Shown piece by piece: positions 1-6,592 of a stretch of DNA of 6,592 nt (position 1 is the first letter of the stretch; every line of letters starts with the position of its first letter). The stretch is from a virus. Its lineage: Duplodnaviria; Heunggongvirae; Uroviricota; Caudoviricetes. The notes under the pieces were generated by a model, which had not been told where the DNA came from, searched no databases, and saw only the letters and a program-made list of their open reading frames with translations. The stretch spans positions 1 to 6,592 of the IMG/VR virus record IMGVR_UViG_2547132273_000014. One strand, written 5' to 3'. A program made the translations under genes and the position numbers.

Positions 1-156
1 TTCGGTATCGATATGAACACCGACCACACGCTGGAAGAAGTGGGTAAACAGTTCGACGTTACCCGTGAACGTATCCGTCAGATCGAAGCGAAGGCGCTGC
101 GTAAACTGCGTCACCCGAGCCGTTCTGAAGTACTGCGTAGCTTCCTGGACGATTAA
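1..156 (+). CDS. rpoD: RNA polymerase sigma-70 factor, C-terminal end (5'-partial, truncated by window start)
   Basis: Frame 1 translates to [51 protein letters not shown], which I recognise as the region 4 C-terminus of E. coli sigma-70. TAA stop at 154-156, followed by hairpins and a T-run. Confidence 0.93.
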
Positions 157-209
157 TCGGTAGGCCGGATCAGGCGTTACACCACATCCGGCACTTTTCC
201 CTTTGCACA

Positions 210-236
210 AACGCCACCTTTTCGGTGGCGTTTTTT
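210..236. terminator. Rho-independent terminator shared by convergent rpoD and mug
   Basis: GC-rich stem AACGCCACC (210-218) / GGTGGCGTT (224-232) with 5-nt loop, then T6 (231-236) on the plus strand; the complementary A/T run gives a weaker U-tract on the minus strand just after the mug stop (235-237). A second hairpin (GCCGGAT 164-170 / ATCCGGC 186-192) lies upstream. Confidence 0.7.
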
Positions 237-741
237 ATCGCCCACGCACTACCAGCGCCTGGTCCAGTTCCCGATACGCCTCAACCAGTTTCTCCAGTGA
301 AACGCGACTTAAACCGCTGGGATTTGGCAGTACCCAAATCTGCGTCGAACCAATAGTGAGCGTTTGCTTCCCCCACTGTGCACCGCGTTGGCTGAATCCT
401 TGCTCAAACGCCTGTTTGCCCAGAATTGCCAACGCTTGTGGTTGGTAATCTTCAATTTTTTCAATCAGCTTACGCCCGCCTGCGTGCAGCTCCTGCTTTG
501 AAACTTCATTGGCTTGCACTGTTGGACGGTCTACAAGTTTGGTGACACCACAACGATAATCCAGCAGATGCTGTGCCTCCTGCGGCTTCAACTGACGGTC
601 GGTAAACCCAGCCTGATATATCACCTTCCAGAAGCGATTTGCCGGATGAGCAAAGGGAAAACCAGTTCCGGCGGATGAAAGACCAGGATTGATACCGCAA
701 AACACAACCCGTAACCCTGGAGCCAAAATATCCTCAACCAT
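235..741 (-). CDS. mug: G/U mismatch-specific DNA glycosylase (Mug)
   Basis: 168-aa [43 protein letters not shown]... matches my recollection of E. coli Mug in length and sequence; it sits convergent to rpoD, as in the E. coli chromosome. Confidence 0.9.
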
Positions 742-827
742 ATTTACTCCTTTCTAACATCACCAGGAAAAGTATAACGGATTGAAAATACATTGTTTAT
801 AAAAACAGCAGGCGAGCGGTAATGGCT

Positions 828-855
828 GGATTGCGACACGGAGTTACTTTATAAT
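828..855 (+). promoter_or_regulatory. Candidate sigma-70 promoter for the tRNA gene (consensus -10 TATAAT, weak -35)
   Basis: Perfect TATAAT at 850-855, about 10 nt before the tRNA 5' end at 866. The best -35 candidate is TGGATT (828-833, 16-bp spacer); a better hexamer TTGCGA (832-837) has only a 12-bp spacer. The -35 assignment is uncertain. Confidence 0.4.
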
Positions 856-865
856 CCGCTACCAT

Positions 866-941
866 GGCCCCTTAGCTCAGTGGTTAGAGCAGGCGACTCA
901 TAATCGCTTGGTCGTTGGTTCAAACCCAACAGGGGCCACCA
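866..941 (+). tRNA. ileX: tRNA with CAU anticodon; by genomic position (downstream of rpoD-mug) the minor isoleucine tRNA (lysidine-modified)
   Basis: 76-nt cloverleaf: acceptor GGCCCCT/AGGGGCC, D-stem GCTC/GAGC, anticodon stem GGCGA/TCGCT with loop CTCATAA (anticodon CAT), T-stem GTTGG/CCAAC, discriminator A and encoded CCA (939-941). Isoacceptor identity (Ile2 versus Met) is inferred from context, not from the sequence alone. Confidence 0.85.
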
Positions 942-949
942 TATCTATC

Positions 950-986
950 AAGGGGTTACGTTAACAGCGTGACCCCTTCGTTTTTT
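950..986 (+). terminator. Rho-independent terminator following the tRNA
   Basis: Stem 950-960 pairs with 968-978 (AAGGGGTTACG / CGTGACCCCTT, one G-U pair), 7-nt loop, then CG + T6 at 981-986. Confidence 0.55.
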
Positions 987-987
987 C

Positions 988-1007
988 TAGGATACCTATA
1001 GGATACC
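988..1007. repeat. Tandem direct repeat TAGGATACC-TA-TAGGATACC (11-bp period)
   Basis: Exact 9-mer at 988-996 and 999-1007, immediately after the tRNA terminator. Candidate recombinase or arm-type binding site at the island boundary; function not established. Confidence 0.45.
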
Positions 1008-1266
1008 GTGACAGAGTATAAGCAGGTATAAAAACAACAAGTTACGCAACATCATACCTGTCATGAAACTTTAACTATCCGACATGATAGCTGGTCGATG
1101 ATCACGGATAATCCGTTATGTGGATCCCCATATCGGCATCAGGCCCACCAGCGTGAAGCGTTTTTCATTTTTCGCGGGTATAAAAAATCGATGGGGCTGG
1201 CAGTCCGGAAGACGTCAGGGTACAGAGATTTGACCCGCCCCTCCCTGTGCATGGGCACAATAAGTA

Positions 1267-1292
1267 ACCGAAGGCGGAATTCCGCCCTCGGT
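1267..1292. promoter_or_regulatory. 26-bp near-perfect palindrome (core GGCGGAATTCCGCC)
   Basis: ACCGAAGGCGGAATTCCGCCCTCGGT; 14-bp perfect core at 1273-1286, arms extend to 13 bp with one mismatched pair (1272/1287). No adjacent U-tract on either strand, so it is not an intrinsic terminator. Confidence 0.4.
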
Positions 1293-1326
1293 ACTCACAT
1301 ATGAGAAACGATATTTCTTCCTCTGA

Positions 1327-1397
1327 TACCCAAAATATGGGTATCACAAGTAACCCCCAAAATCTGGGTGTTGCTCTTACTACCCAAACTACGGGTA
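1327..1397. promoter_or_regulatory. Array of three 17-bp palindromic operator-like sites (YACCC-N7-GGGTR) at an exact 27-bp period
   Basis: TACCCAAAATATGGGTA (1327-1343), CCCCCAAAATCTGGGTG (1354-1370), TACCCAAACTACGGGTA (1381-1397). The centre-to-centre spacing is 27 bp twice and the spacers are A/T-rich. Confidence 0.5.
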
Positions 1398-1417
1398 GTT
1401 TCCGTAATTTCATGGTC

Positions 1418-1464
1418 GAGTTGCAGATCTGCAACTCACCCACCAGCCAACGCAATTTTGCGTT
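1418..1464. promoter_or_regulatory. 20-bp perfect palindrome GAGTTGCAGATCTGCAACTC (1418-1437) plus 7-2-7 inverted repeat AACGCAA-TT-TTGCGTT (1449-1464)
   Basis: Both are exact in the sequence and lie 20-65 bp downstream of the stop of the 126-aa minus-strand ORF. Neither is followed by a U-tract. Confidence 0.45.
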
Positions 1465-1482
1465 ATCGGGAATATCAGCAAG

Positions 1483-1863
1483 TTACCGCCGCAGCCGTTC
1501 CGGCTTCTTCCACTGGTAAGTATTTTTCGCGCTCTCCCTCCGTTGTTGAGAACGGCGACGGTATGCCAGCAACTCAAGGACTCTGGTTCGTATGTTGCAC
1601 ATATCCACGCCGTTAAGCTCAATACCATCACGGCGCATCACCTCAGCAACAACACGCGCGTAATTTTCGGCTATCACGCTGTCCGGCTGCGTGGCCTCCT
1701 GTTCGCCAGCCTGCTGGCTGATTCCGGTAATACTGCGGATTATCCCGAGCGCTTCGGTCTCGGTCATGGTCATGGTCATGGCCTCCATAGTGATGGCGGG
1801 TCCTCCTTGTGGGGTGCCCTGCCACGGGGCGGGAGCATCGCGGAAAAAGGCTAGTTTTTGCAT
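1483..1863 (-). CDS. Hypothetical protein downstream of the small terminase gene (start uncertain, likely internal at about 1773-1788)
   Basis: 126-aa ORF in the same orientation as the packaging genes, with a basic C-terminus. The first ATG (1863) lacks an RBS. A GGAGG at 1783-1787 precedes three tandem in-frame ATGs formed by (ATGACC)x3 at 1762-1779; the ATG at 1771-1773 has the best spacing (8 nt). I recognise no protein family. Confidence 0.4.
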   Translation of the reverse strand: MQKLAFFRDAPAPWQGTPQGGPAITMEAMTMTMTETEALGIIRSITGISQQAGEQEATQPDSVIAENYARVVAEVMRRDGIELNGVDMCNIRTRVLELLAYRRRSQQRRESAKNTYQWKKPERLRR

Positions 1864-2024
1864 TTTTATTCGTCATCACCACCAATGCAATATATTGATA
1901 TGACTTGATGTTTTATTTTTCGGTGTCGATTTCGATTGTTTTTTGTTCATCACTGACGCATAACGCCCACCAGCGCAACGCTGAAAGCCAGTCAGTAAAC
2001 TGGCTTCGGTCATTGTGCACTACG

Positions 2025-2567
2025 TTACTTGTCTTTATCCGGCTGAAACTTATCAGGCACATTTCCGGTAGTTTCCATCAGATAATCGGACAGCATTCGC
2101 GGGATGTTTTCATCAAGTTTTGTGCATGCGTTACAGGCTCTGACAACTTCTTTTTTCAGGCCATCCAGCATGACGGGGGTCATCTGTGGGAAGCTCCTTT
2201 GCATAGTAAGCGGGAGGCTGTCCATGATTGATGAAATCTGACTCGCCAGTTTTGAAAGCGCGTACATGCAAAACTCTGTATCAATCACGTCACCGCGATC
2301 GCGCTCGTTTTTAAGTTCCTGCGCCTCCGCCTGTGCTGTCAGTAATCTGATCCTGACTCGTAAGAGTTCATCATCATCAATCTCGCCTTTGTCGTTTGTA
2401 AGCTGGCTAATTGCATTGTTAACCCTATTGTCTATCACGCTGGCAACATCATAAAACGCCTCACGGCCTTTACGTTCAACGGGAGTCACTCCCCACTTGT
2501 CGAATGCTGTAGCACTTACCCGGCAGCTTTGCGCCATGGTTTTTTTGTTCATCAGGTGCGATTTCAT
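2025..2567 (-). CDS. Phage lambda Nu1-like terminase small subunit (TerS)
   Basis: The translation aligns along its whole length with lambda gpNu1 as I recall it, for example RLLTAQAEAQELKNERDRGDVIDTEFCMYALSKLASQISSIMDSLPLTMQRSFPQ against lambda RLTRAQADAQELKNARDSAEVVETAFCTFVLSRIAGEIASILDGLPLSVQRRFPE, and C-terminal DENIPRMLSDYLMETTG against DELIPGLLSEYIEQSG. The N-terminal segment MNKKTMAQSCRVSATAFDKWGV is more divergent. It lies immediately downstream of a cos site, as in lambda. The ORF-track start at 2570 is TTG; ATG starts are at 2567 and 2552. Confidence 0.85.
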   Translation of the reverse strand: MKSHLMNKKTMAQSCRVSATAFDKWGVTPVERKGREAFYDVASVIDNRVNNAISQLTNDKGEIDDDELLRVRIRLLTAQAEAQELKNERDRGDVIDTEFCMYALSKLASQISSIMDSLPLTMQRSFPQMTPVMLDGLKKEVVRACNACTKLDENIPRMLSDYLMETTGNVPDKFQPDKDK

Positions 2568-2574
2568 CAATATC

Positions 2575-2745
2575 CCAACTTGGTCAAGGTTTCAGGTTGG
2601 TGTGTTGGTGTTATCTTTCCCTTTTTATTCATGGAGATAGAGCAAACAACAAAACCACCACCACCACCCTGAAAAAGCTCATAAATAGCGAAAAACCGCG
2701 AGGTCGCCGCCCCGTAGCCTACCGGATCGCCGGAAAGGACCCGCC
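2575..2745 (-). other. Lambda-type cos site: cosQ-like and cosN (12-nt cohesive end GGGCGGCGACCT, 2701-2712) with a divergent cosB-like region toward the TerS start
   Basis: The minus strand reads GGGTCCTTTCCGGCGATCCGGTAGGCTACG-GGGCGGCGACCT-CGCGGTTTTTCGCTATTTATGA, which is almost base-for-base the lambda right-end/cos/left-end sequence as I recall it (lambda: ...GGGTCCTTTCCGGTGATCCGACAGGTTACG GGGCGGCGACCT CGCGGGTTTTCGCTATTTATGA). The 130 bp between cosN and the TerS start do not resemble lambda cosB. Confidence 0.8.
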
Positions 2746-2768
2746 AGCCAGAACGGGCCCTAATTTCA

Positions 2769-3152
2769 TCAACCAATCAACTTATAGCGACCATCCCGTG
2801 CATTGCGACGTACACGCTCAATCTTGAGGCATAGCGCCGCATCTGGCTTTTTTGGGACAGGTACGCGGCAATATTCAGAAGCTCGAGGAATATTGTTTAT
2901 CCAGTCGATCACTTCACTTAAATACCAGGCCTTACGCCCTTCCGTAACCTGTACGCGCTCGGGGAACTCTCCGCGAGCCTCAAGGTTTAGCAATGTGCGA
3001 CGGCTAAGGGTAGTAAGTTCCATCACCTGATTCATATCAACAAGGCGTTCACTTAAACGCATTTTGTCAGCAATAGCCTTTAATTCCTCTACTGCTGGAT
3101 CCGGATACATCATTTCGGCAATTGGCTTAAGGTCATTGTAATGATTCTGCAT
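2769..3152 (-). CDS. 127-aa DNA-binding protein with an AlpA/Vis/excisionase-type winged HTH (MerR superfamily), flanked by N- and C-terminal extensions
   Basis: Central motif MELTTLSRRTLLNLEARGEFPERVQVTEGRKAWYLSEVIDWI fits the AlpA/Vis-family pattern (L-x-x-LSR-x-T-L...G-x-FP-x-x-V...GR-x-A-W...E-V-x-x-WI). Strong RBS AGGGGG 5 nt upstream of the ATG at 3150-3152. The stop at 2769-2771 is about 25 bp before cosQ. Confidence 0.65.
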   Translation of the reverse strand: MQNHYNDLKPIAEMMYPDPAVEELKAIADKMRLSERLVDMNQVMELTTLSRRTLLNLEARGEFPERVQVTEGRKAWYLSEVIDWINNIPRASEYCRVPVPKKPDAALCLKIERVRRNARDGRYKLIG

Positions 3153-3163
3153 TGTATCCCCCT

Positions 3164-3505
3164 TTACACACGAGCCAGCGGCTGAACAGAAATACCTGAG
3201 CCAACAAACGCGGCAACCTTTGCCGACAGTTCTTTTACAGACTCAGGCCAGTTCAGAGCATCAACATTTAAAACACCTGTCTTATAAACCTGTGCCTGTG
3301 TTTTTTTCGCTGTGTCGATTTGTACAGCGGAAACATAAACCGCTTTGCCTGCGCTCGTTCCATCCCATACCACTAGCGCACCAGTTGCATCTTCCTGCAT
3401 CAGTGGCGTAAACGCAGGTATTACCCCTTTATTGGCTGAAAATATCCCCAGCGTAGTAACCAGTGCTTCAGTGCCAGACATGAGTTCAGTGTAATGAGTA
3501 GCCAT
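3164..3505 (-). CDS. Lambda gpD-like head decoration protein
   Basis: 113 aa, against lambda gpD at about 110 aa. Shared motifs with lambda D as I recall it: [27 protein letters not shown] against [42 protein letters not shown] against [25 protein letters not shown] against TAFAGTAISIV. RBS AAGGGGGAG overlaps the upstream stop. Confidence 0.82.
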   Translation of the reverse strand: [113 protein letters not shown]

Positions 3506-3514
3506 TGCTCCCCC

Positions 3515-4561
3515 TTAGCCAATGCGAACGGTAACAAAACGATTGATGCGGGCCGGTATTGGCTGTGGTGCTGAATGTGTCTGCACATATTCAATAGCCG
3601 GATCACCAGGCACAATATAGTTTTTCGGTGCAAGTTCGGCTTTAGTCAGCCCCATCCGAATTAGCTCCGGATCCTGAATACCGCCATAAGCGACAATCCC
3701 CTGAAGAGCCGTATTGCCAAGCACCATCAAATCAGGATCAAGGAAATATTTTTCAGTTCCGTCCTCGTCGGTATAACGCCCGCTGTAAACAACAATCGCA
3801 ACATCGCCCATATACCCTTTAAAACTCACCGAATCACCAAGGTCTTTAAGGGCCGTTTCCAGTTCGGAATTAGAACCTCGACGGGTATCCAGAGCCTCTT
3901 TTACAGCTCTGAATGAGCGGTATTTTTTCCATACATTGCCGCCCATAATAATGATATTAGTGACTCCCTCACTAAATTCTGCGTAGCTCTCAATATCATC
4001 ATTTGGATCAAAAGATCCTTTATCCTTACCTGACCACTCAGCACCGCCAGACTGAGTGATGATATTTTGTGGTTTAATATTCCAGTCCAGTTCATAACGT
4101 TCAATACCATCGCCCTCAATGATATTTTTCCCCGTTGTGATTGCCTGAACAGCAAGCCATTCAATACGTGCACGTATAGCTTTAGCCTGATTTACAATCG
4201 CCTGTTTAACTTTAATATTACGCGCCCCAAAAGCATTGTATTGTTCAGGTGATACACCAGCAGGGCGCACAGCTAACTTATTTGGATCAATGCTGCTTTT
4301 CGGTTTCATATAGCCAGGGCGAATTGTTTTTGATTCGTATCCCTCATCTCGTGAAACTTTACTGCCCACCATAGGAGAGCAAAACGCCGCGATCGGGATA
4401 TTTGGATCGTCGATCGTATCAAGAATAATGTCTCTCGATTCAAACATTACCGAGCGAGTGAAAAACAAACTGGTAAACAACGCATTTAATTTTTTTTGCA
4501 CATCTTCAGCATTAGCCACCTGCACAAGCTGTGTAGGCGAATATAAATCAACCATACTCAT
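3515..4561 (-). CDS. Lambda gpE-like major capsid protein
   Basis: From the internal start MSMVDLYSPTQL... (ATG at 4559-4561; alternative ATG at 4553-4555) the product is 348 aa, against lambda gpE at 341 aa, and aligns throughout with lambda E as I recall it: ITQSGGAEWSGKDKGSFDPNDDIESYA against ITQSGGTEWSKRDKSTYDPTDDIEAYA; LDTRRGSNSELETALKDLGDSVSFKGYMGDVAIVVYSG against LDTRRGSNSELETAVKDLGKAVSYKGMYGDVAIVVYSG; MVLGNT...YGGIQD against MVLGNT...YGCIQD. The ORF-track N-terminal 27 aa (MHLVACIR...) are probably not translated. Confidence 0.88.
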   Translation of the reverse strand: MSMVDLYSPTQLVQVANAEDVQKKLNALFTSLFFTRSVMFESRDIILDTIDDPNIPIAAFCSPMVGSKVSRDEGYESKTIRPGYMKPKSSIDPNKLAVRPAGVSPEQYNAFGARNIKVKQAIVNQAKAIRARIEWLAVQAITTGKNIIEGDGIERYELDWNIKPQNIITQSGGAEWSGKDKGSFDPNDDIESYAEFSEGVTNIIIMGGNVWKKYRSFRAVKEALDTRRGSNSELETALKDLGDSVSFKGYMGDVAIVVYSGRYTDEDGTEKYFLDPDLMVLGNTALQGIVAYGGIQDPELIRMGLTKAELAPKNYIVPGDPAIEYVQTHSAPQPIPARINRFVTVRIG

Positions 4562-4726
4562 CCTCTTTACATTCATTACAAATAATTGTGAATATATTCT
4601 ATTACCGATGTCTGCTATGCGAATACATGCAACCAAGTGCAATGTTGTATAAAATCTGCCGTGACAACTTCAGTGCTGATAATTCGTGTTAATGTATTTA
4701 CTTCCTTTGGTCGGGATTTATGTAGC

Positions 4727-4761
4727 ATGCCGGAAAATCTATTTTCTTCCGGCATTTTTTT
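4727..4761 (+). terminator. Plus-strand-oriented intrinsic-terminator-like hairpin in the SSB/capsid intergenic region
   Basis: 9-bp stem ATGCCGGAA (4727-4735) / TTCCGGCAT (4747-4755), 11-nt loop, then T6 (4756-4761). On the minus strand the run is A-rich before the stem, so it is not a terminator for the flanking minus-strand genes. Confidence 0.4.
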
Positions 4762-4772
4762 ATTTGCAGAAT

Positions 4773-5195
4773 TTAAAACGGTATATTATCGCCGTACGGA
4801 TCATCATTCCCCGACTGTTGTTTTGCCCTGTTCAGTGCGTCAGTAGCCTGGCCCTGTTGACCTTTTTTGCCGCCCGGTCGCGCCGTTCTGGCACTGATTA
4901 CACTGTCTGCGATAACCTGCCAGCCCTGCCGCGTTTCGCCGTTCTGGCCTGTCCACTGGCTTACCTGCATGTTACCCGCCACGCTCACCAGTTCGCCTTT
5001 GTGGTGTTTTGCCAGTGCGTCGGCCTGTCTGCCAAACGCCAGGACGGATAACCACATCGTCGCCGTTCCGTCATCTGCCTGGCTGCACGGAAGTGGGACC
5101 GCCATACTCGCCATCGTCATTTGTGTACCCTTGCTGGTGGTCTTTAACTGCGGGTCAGCCACCAGCCGCCCGTAAGCCGCTATCTGTGCTGTCAT
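4773..5195 (-). CDS. Single-stranded DNA-binding protein (SSB)-like, with acidic C-terminal ...DNIPF tail
   Basis: 140 aa. The OB-fold region resembles E. coli SSB as I recall it: IAAYGRLVADPQLKTT against VILVGNLGQDPEVRYM; MWLSVLAFGRQADALAKHHKGELVSVAGNMQVSQWTGQNGETRQ against [45 protein letters not shown]. A Gly/Gln-rich linker leads to a terminal DDPYGDNIPF, compared with SSB DDDIPF. The start ATG overlaps the stop of the upstream ORF (ATGA). Confidence 0.72.
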   Translation of the reverse strand: MTAQIAAYGRLVADPQLKTTSKGTQMTMASMAVPLPCSQADDGTATMWLSVLAFGRQADALAKHHKGELVSVAGNMQVSQWTGQNGETRQGWQVIADSVISARTARPGGKKGQQGQATDALNRAKQQSGNDDPYGDNIPF

Positions 5196-5437
5196 GCTGT
5201 CTGCTCTCCGGTTTTAACGTTGATGGTTGTCACCTGTTCCGCTTCGGCAATCTCCCGTTCTGTCAGCGTGGCAAAGTTTGCAGCTGCCGTTGTCATGAAT
5301 GAGCTAATCAGTTCGGGATGTGCTTTCGCATATCCTTCCCCGGCGTTGCGGTCGATGATTTTTATCGACACCCTTAACCAGTGTTCCGTCAAATCAAGGG
5401 CGTGCGATTGTGATTTTTTTGTGTGCTTCGCTGTCAT
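5192..5437 (-). CDS. Hypothetical 81-aa protein, translationally coupled to the SSB-like gene
   Basis: ORF MTAKHTKKSQSHALDLTEHWLRVSIKIID... lies between the iteron array and the SSB-like gene in the same orientation, with a 4-bp ATGA stop/start overlap. I recognise no family and the RBS is weak. Confidence 0.45.
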   Translation of the reverse strand: MTAKHTKKSQSHALDLTEHWLRVSIKIIDRNAGEGYAKAHPELISSFMTTAAANFATLTEREIAEAEQVTTINVKTGEQTA

Positions 5438-5482
5438 AGGCTTTATCTCACAGCAGTAAATTAAAATTTTTGCGTTTTAACC

Positions 5483-5712
5483 CTTCACCTGTTCACCTTT
5501 TGATATTTTATCTTTTAATTCATAATGTTAAGGGGTGAACAGTTTCACAAAAACTATTCACCAACTGTTCACCACTGTTCACCCTTGAAGCTCAATAAAC
5601 AATCAAAAAGGTGAACAGTGAATAGTTTGGTGAACAGTTCATAAATAACTGTTCACCCTATAACATACTGATACAAAAGATATTTATGACAGGGTGAACA
5701 GTGGTGAACAGT
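5483..5712. repeat. Iteron array: at least 9 perfect copies of TGTTCACC / GGTGAACA (10-bp unit ACTGTTCACC) in both orientations; P4 ori/crr-like primase-binding repeats
   Basis: Forward TGTTCACC at 5490, 5566, 5576 and 5650. Reverse GGTGAACA at 5534, 5610, 5629, 5693 and 5703. Degenerate copies at 5483-5489, 5555-5562 and 5618-5625. Interspersed A/T-rich tracts (5461-5480, 5498-5530). The array sits directly after the stop of the primase/helicase gene. Confidence 0.8.
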
Positions 5713-5724
5713 TATTCCATAAGT

Positions 5725-6592
5725 TTAATTTTTGCTATCGTCATTAGTGACCGATACACATGATGGCATCCAGTCTTCTGATTCCTCCGTCAGTGTCACG
5801 TTTGAACGCAAACCGTGCTTCGTTTTCCGTTTCATATACTCCCTGCCATATTCCGCCATTGCCCCCGGCATATCTTTACCGAAGCGCGTCAGTGTTACAG
5901 GTTTACCAAACCCATGTGCCCTCATATAAGCCAGATAGGCATGATAGAGATACCTGCGTGGGCTGAATGGCACAATTTCAGCATTACCCACTAACAGGCC
6001 ATCACACATTACCGACGCCATGAGATAGCCGCAGAAGTCCACCAGCGAATCCCCCTCTCGCTTTATCGCCAGTGCTTCTTCAGATTTCTGCTGCTCATAT
6101 AACAGGCGTCTGGCTTCGTCCTGGTCAGCAAACCGTGTAAGCAGATGGCGAATCACTACCGCCAACTCACCTTCTATTTTTTCCGCCAGCATTGGATCGC
6201 GTTCGTTCTCCGGTACAACTTCCGAAAAATTGAATATCACCCGACGACGTGAGATCCCCCCGCTGCGGTCACTGAATGACATGGCGTTATTGTTAACCGC
6301 CAGCACTACTGCCGGAATACGCGTTGAGTAGGGGGCTTTGTGTTTCGGGTCAATTGCCACCTTGTCACCGCCTGTAATGGCCTTAATTCCTGCCCCATCA
6401 CCAGCGTAGCGGGTCATATCCGGCATGATAATCAGCGAAAAGCCAACCACTAACGCGCGTTCCCTTGCATCTTCCAGCGCCTTCATGCTTGCCGATACTG
6501 TGTTGGCCTTACCCGCCAGCATGGTGCAAATCTCCGCCATCACGCTTTTACCACTTCCCCCTGGACCTGTTACCTCAATGAATAACTGCCAG
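5725..6592 (-). CDS. P4-alpha-like primase/helicase, C-terminal helicase portion (5'-partial; continues beyond window end)
   Basis: The open frame runs to the window edge. Its translation contains the Walker A motif in ...WQLFIEVTGPGGSGKSVMAEICTMLAG... and downstream helicase-like motifs (LIIMPDMTRYAGD). It is immediately followed by the TGTTCACC iterons that are the recognition repeats of P4 alpha. The ORF-track start at 6543 is an internal GTG. Confidence 0.8.
   Translation of the reverse strand, partial: WQLFIEVTGPGGSGKSVMAEICTMLAGKANTVSASMKALEDARERALVVGFSLIIMPDMTRYAGDGAGIKAITGGDKVAIDPKHKAPYSTRIPAVVLAVNNNAMSFSDRSGGISRRRVIFNFSEVVPENERDPMLAEKIEGELAVVIRHLLTRFADQDEARRLLYEQQKSEEALAIKREGDSLVDFCGYLMASVMCDGLLVGNAEIVPFSPRRYLYHAYLAYMRAHGFGKPVTLTRFGKDMPGAMAEYGREYMKRKTKHGLRSNVTLTEESEDWMPSCVSVTNDDSKN

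Follow-up and report, generated by a model that had tools for sequence, protein, structure and literature searches.

The window analysed here is a stretch of 6,592 nucleotides (nt), positions 1 to 6,592 of the IMG/VR virus record IMGVR_UViG_2547132273_000014, and the gene in question lies in an open reading frame (ORF) of 126 amino acids (aa) at positions 1483-1863 on the minus strand, directly after a small terminase gene (terS). It is very likely that this ORF holds a genuine and conserved gene of only 94 to 96 aa that is specific to phage-inducible chromosomal islands (PICIs), that the tandem ATG codons near its 5' end are a polymorphic in-frame variable-number tandem repeat (VNTR), and that an inverted cos site accounts for the 32 upstream codons, which are an artefact. 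Taken as a whole, the explanation set out below is probably the best one for this locus.

An initial annotation of the window had described a 126-aa gene. The frame is indeed open from the ATG at 1863, but the length of the product was not upheld. In Escherichia coli strain FDAARGOS_1262, whose locus (L001) is 100% identical to the window, the RefSeq/PGAP gene call runs from 1483 to 1767 and gives a product of 94 aa (WP_024212232.1); likewise, 94 aa were called in all alleles examined. When the 126-aa ORF was searched with the profile of phrog_1561, a family annotated 'prophage protein', residues 33-126 matched profile positions 1-93 of 93 (E=5.6e-50), so the match covers the full length of the family. 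In-frame stop codons were found 7 codons upstream of the MTE start in the ST131 island (L002) and 19 codons upstream in Sakai Sp7 (L003), and a single MT, with E-x-E after it, opens 126 of the 235 distinct sequences of the family.

The longer frame is apparent because the 96 bases upstream of the conserved start, which belong to an inverted cos element (cos2), stay open when they are read backwards. The peptide FRDAPAPWQG in this extension is cosN read on the reverse strand, and AAGGAGGA at 1801-1808 is the complement of cosQ. In strain CFT073, the cos2 DNA is shifted to another frame with respect to the gene, and no upstream ATG is present. That the 126 aa are the true product, translated from ATG 1863 with the Met-Thr repeat as an internal linker, is therefore highly improbable. 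The open frame, the 122-133-aa versions deposited by Prodigal-type pipelines and a match of phrog_35283 to residues 1-42 would fit such a product, but the extension was seen only in islands with cos2 DNA, and what is conserved in it falls on cosQ and cosN. Besides the frame difference in CFT073 and the upstream stops in the ST131 and Sakai islands, only a weak Shine-Dalgarno (SD) interaction was calculated for ATG 1863 (-6.2 kcal/mol), whereas both PGAP and phrog_1561 begin at the MTE motif. Phage records matching the cos2 block carry short 'hypothetical proteins' annotated over cos regions, and these may be the source of phrog_35283. The database entries of 122-133 aa are over-calls running through a cos site.

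The initial annotation had also drawn attention to an (ATGACC)x3 repeat with three in-frame ATGs and to a GGAGG element ahead of it. Both were located exactly (Table 1), and Tandem Repeats Finder returned a period of 6 with 3.3 copies and 100% match at 1762-1781. By our own estimate, with 12 matching positions required and a uniform base composition assumed, a perfect three-copy hexamer would arise by chance about 4e-4 times per window (4^-12 x 6,600). The slippage-prone tract that had been suspected, one that changes the number of Met-Thr dipeptides, was borne out when copy numbers were compared among strains. Two copies were read in L008, three in the window, four in L007 and five in L006, and protein records extended the range from one copy (P0026) to five (P0178). 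A census by match length covered 97 complete genomes with the gene-plus-spacer arrangement; among the matches listed (60 of the 97 genomes), 27 had three copies, 18 had four and 15 had two, and at least four further genomes had five. The flanks of these repeat alleles were about 99.5% identical. Since copy number varies between otherwise near-identical islands, the tract is a real, fast-changing, in-frame VNTR. The comparison shows that the ATG and the Thr codon following it have been tandemly duplicated and that the tract changes length by replication slippage, with one to five copies in E. coli populations and always in frame. Other members of the family carry independent N-terminal duplications (MTMTE, MTITE and MTRM(T/S)E). 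The hexamer VNTR can serve as a fast-evolving marker that separates otherwise near-identical copies of the island.

The duplex between GGAGG and the anti-SD sequence was calculated at -9.3 kcal/mol and ends 1, 7 and 13 nt before ATG 1779, ATG 1773 and ATG 1767, respectively. Because it ends 7 nt before ATG 1773, the second ATG is the best placed and the three-copy allele would give a product of 96 aa; translation is thus predicted to start most likely at this ATG, 8 nt after GGAGG. The SD-region motif ATCACTATGGAGGC was retained in L017 and L019. Every allele with at least two copies keeps an ATG at the 8-nt spacing, so added copies should lengthen the N-terminus by Met-Thr and should not alter initiation. 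The copy-number variation is probably near-neutral, and the gene would not be switched off by it.

A different view of the tract, that it is an adaptive tuner in which the distance from SD to ATG or the length of the Met-Thr tail sets dose or activity, as in a contingency-like locus, is unlikely. It would account for the coexistence of at least five alleles on near-identical backgrounds, for the recurrence of start duplications in the family and for the shift of 6 nt per copy in the distance between the SD and the last ATG. However, the 8-nt spacing kept at two or more copies leaves the predicted efficiency of initiation constant, and most family members have a single MT. As the unit is 6 nt and all alleles are in frame, on/off switching is impossible. 

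The reading frame itself is conserved. The initial annotation had held that a frame lost in related islands would speak against the gene; instead, comparison with the homologues in three other islands gave ratios of nonsynonymous to synonymous substitution rates (dN/dS) of 0.23-0.30 at dS values of 0.2-0.7, and comparison with two distant members gave 0.21-0.47 at dS of about 1-2.3. As far as sequence comparison can show it, the gene is genuine and under purifying selection. Homologues were numerous (904-1121 found, mostly of 93-94 aa). The family was present in 1,592 of 5,426 complete E. coli genomes (about 29%) and also occurred in Shigella, Salmonella and Citrobacter, and all its members bear the source names 'hypothetical' or 'prophage protein'. 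We consider it hardly credible that the ORF is a decaying remnant without function. A remnant would be in keeping with the lack of an assigned function or known domain and with the probable dispensability of the homologue for transfer in the CFT073 island (EcCICFT073), but dN/dS stayed between 0.21 and 0.47 across all pairs, the frame was intact over dS values up to about 2, the C-terminal motif was invariant, and the gene occurs in about 29% of complete E. coli genomes and in the three further genera.

With phmmer, run exhaustively, only 38 matches were obtained over 1.84 billion cluster representatives (50% clustering), all enterobacterial and many fragmentary, and no distant annotated relative was among them. 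No relative bearing a Pfam domain was found among the best 120 of 1,121 profile matches in a set of 5.8 billion proteins. The family was essentially absent from 50,697 phage records searched by tblastn. A single marginal match came from Klebsiella phage P12620-1, a 106-kb record with poor annotation, where it lies in a gap between annotated features; it was uninformative.

In all the islands compared (L001, L002, L003/L016, L004, L009-L012, L013 and L017), the family gene is the last gene of the late/packaging operon and of the island, placed directly after a packaging gene and beside the attachment (att) junction. The preceding gene differs from island to island. In the window island and in L017 it encodes a Nu1-like small terminase (TerS), with a 257-nt spacer containing cos2 in the window island; in EcCICFT073 it encodes RppA, with a spacer of 279 nt and an inverted cos2. 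The ST131 island has a DUF1441 protein with a gap of 2 nt (TGAtaATG), L013 has a DUF1441 fragment overlapping by 4 nt, and L009-L012 have a 175-aa protein resembling helix-turn-helix (HTH) or TerS proteins. The capsid-forming island Sakai Sp7/EcCIEDL933 has a genuine large terminase (TerL) at a gap of 13 nt. Since the family gene follows a genuine TerL there, it is not a stand-in for TerL.

The terminal region of EcCICFT073 in RefSeq consists of the capsid gene, the decoration gene, a 137-aa ORF, a 144-aa protein, the 93-aa homologue and phoQ. The 144-aa protein was identified as RppA because it matches RppC (PDB 6HLK) at 5e-31. We rejected the idea that Rpp and DUF1441 are the same, as CFT073 RppA is not a member of DUF1441 and the DUF1441 protein of the ST131 island had no match to RppC; a literature search on DUF1441 was uninformative. 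The closest pair of gene copies was that of CFT073 (Rpp type) and Sakai (capsid-forming), both inserted at phoQ (dS 0.21), and the window copy (TerS type) was closest to the copy of the ST131 island (DUF1441 type). Relatedness therefore does not track the preceding gene, and the gene behaves as part of the island backbone. The packaging modules are swapped between this terminal gene and the replication module.

A distant member of the family (48% identity, 86 aa, at L009:6314-6574) closes a different satellite-like island found in Logan contigs L009 and L010. This island encodes an AAA_25 helicase, ProQ, PerC, several unknown proteins, the 175-aa HTH/TerS-like protein and one protein of 678 aa with a transglycosylase-like region.

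The coordinates of the elements discussed are collected in Table 1.

Table 1. Position, strand and basis of the main features in the window
Feature	Position	Strand	Basis or remark
tRNA gene ileX (anticodon CAT), island-chromosome junction	866-941	+	ARAGORN; RefSeq tRNA-Ile
Conserved coding sequence, 94 aa from the last ATG, MTETEALG...KPERLRR	1483-1767	-	PGAP, phrog_1561, dN/dS
In-frame hexamer VNTR, (ATGACC)x3	1762-1779	-	ATGACCATGACCATGACC, exact match; start codons 1779, 1773, 1767
Non-coding 5' extension of the 126-aa ORF, codons 1-32	1768-1863	-	Reverse read of cos2
GGAGG, SD-like element	1782-1786	-	2, 8 and 14 nt upstream of ATGs 1779, 1773 and 1767
cos2, inverted second cos-like element	1794-1957	+	cosQ GGGTCCT 1798-1804, cosN variant GGGCGGGAGCAT 1827-1838, then cosB-like stretch
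Nu1-like small terminase, full-length, 180-181 aa	2025-2567	-	PGAP coordinates from L001
cos1	2701-2742	-	Exact lambda cosN GGGCGGCGACCT 2701-2712 and cosQ GGGTCCT 2736-2742; zero-mismatch match

The first cos site, cos1, lies upstream of terS and is identical to the left end of lambda through about 45 bases, beyond which it diverges. The TerS product matched Pfam Phage_Nu1 (E=9.8e-23) and phrog_57 (E=6e-52) and was 37% identical to lambda Nu1 over 179 aa, the C-terminal region included. As a full-length homologue of Nu1 is encoded, the island has a complete TerS where EcCICFT073 has the shorter Rpp (RppA). The cosB-equivalent of cos1 contains (GGT)5, reported as ACC x5 at 2654-2668, and two copies of GTTGGTGT (2596-2611); these repeats may be binding sites of TerS.

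The block of 164 bp designated cos2 is a second cos-like site that is inverted relative to the genes. Alignments were obtained with a Qin-like prophage, where the block directly precedes a DUF1441-type terS, with the reverse complement of the spacer between rppA and the 93-aa ORF of CFT073, with lambda, and with cos1 of the window itself. The distance between cosQ and cosN is 29 nt in cos2 and 30 nt in cos1. A cosN of the variant type seen in cos2 also precedes DUF1441 terS genes and occurs in phages resembling mEp460; in mEp460 and mEp460-like lambdoids the block stands at the right genome end, after the lysis genes. About 2,490 of 5,426 E. coli genomes contain the block, some with as many as seven copies, and these copies lie in unannotated sequence. 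The inverted orientation and the mEp460/DUF1441 type of cos2 suggest either a second helper packaging specificity or a relic of module exchange. An ORF of 45 aa at 1876-2013 (minus strand), between terS and the family gene, had no family match and lies inside the cosB-like stretch of cos2; for these two reasons it was treated as probably spurious.

The initial annotation had called the product unrecognised and basic at its C-terminus, and both descriptions held. Residues 67-94 have an isoelectric point (pI) of 11.8 and residues 1-66 one of 4.4. Scans with Pfam and NCBIfam gave nothing, and neither did a search of the PDB with the single sequence and the family profile yield anything significant (EPSP synthase E=1.9; HMBOX1 homeodomain E=0.055); a homeodomain-like or HTH assignment found no significant profile or fold match. 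PADLOC returned only BrxA (E=0.017, 13 bits), which was treated as noise, and the protein was not classed as a defence protein. Structure prediction, which had also been proposed, gave an AlphaFold2 model (24-sequence alignment) with a mean predicted local distance difference test (pLDDT) score of 78 and helices at residues 3-14, 29-46 and 53-81, of which the two longer ones fold into a confident hairpin; pLDDT is about 90 or above for residues 41-70. The most conserved feature of the family is the extreme C-terminus, Y/F-x-W-K/R-K-P-E-R-L-R-R, in which W86 and R93 were invariant and Y84, K88, P89, E90, R91, L92 and R94 were at least 90% conserved among 24-25 diverse members. The motif was retained even in forms of 63 aa that are without the first helix.

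Because this motif is invariant while the packaging neighbour changes family, and because relatedness tracks the backbone, we tentatively put forward, as a weak inference held with low confidence, that the protein is a small accessory adaptor whose basic tail contacts a common partner. It would be made up of an acidic N-terminal helix, a helical hairpin and an invariant, probably disordered Arg/Lys-rich tail, YxW(K/R)KPERLRR. It would be co-expressed with the packaging protein of the island, by translational coupling to the packaging gene in some islands, and the tail would dock on a partner common to all island types. Such a partner could be a nucleic acid or a protein encoded by the host or the backbone; a specific terminase is less likely. 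The adaptor would not be essential for transfer under laboratory conditions.

Published work on EcCICFT073 bears on this last point. When its genes located after the replication origin were each cloned and expressed, only c1503 (rppA) cut the plaques of lambda and phage 80 (PMC6739421). With cosN-deleted lambda or phi80 as helper, an EcCICFT073 derivative carrying c1504-c1507::cat still reaches transfer titres of about 1e6-1e7 per ml (PMC10460865). According to RefSeq, the 93-aa homologue is the sole gene between rppA and phoQ in CFT073, from which we infer that the c1504-c1507 interval includes the homologue and that, in these assays, it is dispensable for induction, packaging, transfer and establishment. 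In the capsid-forming EcCIEDL933, deletion of 'hypothetical gene 1792' impaired transfer. This gene was considered as the homologue and rejected, since the capsid gene is 1786 and counting by gene order would put the homologue at 1795. Gene 1792 is most likely a 60-aa ORF between the HNH gene and terS; such an ORF lies at 13659-13841 of L016 (EDL933) and is unrelated to the family described here.

Several points weigh against the overall picture. The start ATG is a prediction, and the single-copy allele has only an ATG 2 nt from GGAGG, a poor fit to the proposed SD; this allele may use ATG 1788, with AAGGAGGA as SD 12-13 nt upstream, or another mechanism. The fold and profile searches gave nothing significant for function. 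Tight coupling to the packaging gene could equally mean that the protein acts in packaging but is redundant when lambda and phi80 are used in the laboratory. Finally, c1504-c1507 was mapped onto the homologue from gene order and not from the original annotation.

The initial annotation had proposed, by position only, a helper-interaction or helper-interference factor, which in the present terms would bind the terminase (TerS, Rpp or TerL) or the portal. The constant place directly behind a packaging-specificity or terminase gene, the translational coupling in L002 and L013 and the absence of the family from bona fide phages (one marginal match by tblastn) are what such a factor would lead one to expect. 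On the other side, the upstream partner comes from at least five unrelated or distant families, TerL of the capsid-forming islands among them, whereas the C-terminal motif stays invariant; the gene copies also group by backbone and att site, as the pair at phoQ does, and not by packaging type. The plaque and transfer results from EcCICFT073 also fail to bear the proposal out, given that only c1503 was inhibitory and that the derivative without the interval to which gene order assigns the homologue still transfers. This negative evidence makes the proposal less likely than position alone suggested, and we hold it to be rather doubtful.

With a similar degree of doubt, the protein could be a regulator that binds nucleic acid, the Arg-rich end of helix 3 and the W-KKPERLRR tail acting on DNA (cos or att) or on an RNA hairpin much as arginine-rich motifs or homeodomain-like recognition helices do. 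The strongly basic C-terminal 28 residues would suit this role, the gene adjoins cos2 and would adjoin attP in the circular island, and the only PDB matches of the family profile were to the HMBOX1 homeodomain (E=0.055 and 0.095, positions 24-78). The tail presumably also resembles the arginine-rich motif of lambda N. The homeodomain match is not significant, however, AlphaFold2 gives one continuous helix at 53-81 instead of a helix-turn-helix, and there is no Pfam match. The accessory adaptor reading accommodates a nucleic acid among its possible partners and is the one that we tentatively keep. A bolder proposal, that the protein is a universal core factor of enterobacterial satellites, with the tail docking on a conserved host or helper target or on nucleic acid and the VNTR of this lineage as a reversible and heritable tuner of dose or N-terminus, is very unlikely; if it were true, the gene would have been kept while packaging modules were swapped, and a contingency-like locus would exist in a phage satellite.

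The window is part of the E. coli chromosome and comprises the 3' end of rpoD, mug, a tRNA gene with anticodon CAT and then the mobile island, every gene of which is on the minus strand. ARAGORN labelled the tRNA gene tRNA-Met; in RefSeq it is tRNA-Ile, flanked by rpoD and mug and, at its other end, by the island. The CAU anticodon of ileX is lysidine-modified. In strain FDAARGOS_1262 the whole island is about 10 kb and lies between ileX and nfeF. Its genes are, in order, the integrase, a small HTH gene, an Icd-like gene, DUF4222, the primase, an 81-aa ORF and SSB, followed by the lambda-E-like capsid, the gpD-like decoration protein, an AlpA-like HTH protein, the small terminase and, last, the 'hypothetical protein' studied here. 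No portal, protease, tail or lysis genes were found in it. Island size and att site, integrase, alpA-type regulator, primase with iterons, a helper-type cos site and the lack of a full virion gene set all agree with what defines Gram-negative PICIs, and by its gene architecture the island is accordingly classified, at the level of sequence, as an EcCICFT073-like PICI at ileX. Induction by helper phage and transfer have been published only for EcCICFT073 and EcCIEDL933.

Several further observations were made in the island. The lambda-E-like capsid and gpD-like decoration genes (3164-4642, minus strand) occur without portal or protease genes. Their EcCICFT073 counterparts are c1499 (capsid) and c1500 (decoration), and deletion of either left transfer and interference unaffected (PMC6092414). 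Direct repeats of 10 bp, three copies of AACTGTTCACC and 2.5 copies of ACAGTGGTGA, lie 3' of the primase gene at 5552-5583 and 5689-5712; the location of these iteron-like repeats matches that of published PICI replication origins. The non-coding stretch 1075-1482, downstream of the family gene, shares 89% identity with its counterpart in the differently integrated ST131 island and contains a GC-rich hairpin with an 11-bp stem at 1267-1292. A sub-element of 83 bp within it (1163-1245), always unannotated, appears to explain most of the approximately 2,500 E. coli genomes that match 1075-1482. An Rfam search over 950-2800, with gathering thresholds and with permissive E-values, gave nothing credible.

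Part of this was already known, as the gene had been annotated as hypothetical and catalogued as phrog_1561, and the island class, the arrangement with two cos sites and the neighbouring genes had been published. In the literature searched, we found no earlier correction of the reading frame, no start-codon VNTR with alleles of one to five copies, no account of the orientation or type of cos2 in the window island, and no recognition that the late operon ends with this one gene in every class of E. coli PICI. The new points are useful but modest. The gene is the one late-operon gene common to Rpp-type, TerS-type and capsid-forming PICIs. With its boundaries fixed and both the selection acting on it and its invariant tail described, it lends itself well to deletion and interaction work in EcCICFT073 and EcCIEDL933.

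Contingency loci with simple-sequence repeats are known from phase-variable genes of Haemophilus, Neisseria and Campylobacter. Like them, the hexamer tract is a short tandem repeat that lies 5' in a coding sequence and varies in copy number among close strains; it differs in that each of its 6-nt units carries its own start codon and no allele leaves the frame. With lambda gpA, the protein shares only the map position: as the initial annotation had noted, its gene stands where lambda has gene A, next after the Nu1-type terS counting from cos. However, gpA has 641 aa with terminase domains, whereas no terminase domain was found in the 94-aa protein with Pfam, PHROG or NCBIfam.

The Rpp proteins (RppA/c1503 and RppC, PDB 6HLK) are similarly small, specific to PICIs and encoded in the same operon, RppA being the neighbour of the family member in EcCICFT073. 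They have no sequence similarity to the protein described here. The winged HTH of Rpp mimics TerS, whereas the present protein had no PDB sequence match and its model, a helical hairpin with a basic tail, has no winged HTH. Rpp blocks lambda and is needed for transfer, in contrast to the dispensable interval assigned to the homologue.

EcCICFT073 carries two functional cos sites, cos1 and cos2 (Fillol-Salom et al. 2018, PMC6092414). The window island resembles it in having two cos-like sites, one upstream of rpp or terS and a second, inverted one before the small terminal ORF; the second site of EcCICFT073 has the exact lambda cosN, whereas cos2 of the window has the variant GGGCGGGAGCAT. The known members of phrog_1561 include ECs_1599 of Sakai Sp7/EcCIEDL933 and the 93-aa ORF between rppA and phoQ of EcCICFT073, the latter being 70% identical to the window protein and sharing its island-terminal position and the C-terminal YxWKKPERLRR motif. 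The lineage of the window differs from these members in having two to five ATGACC copies, where most have one, and in following a Nu1-like TerS instead of RppA or TerL.

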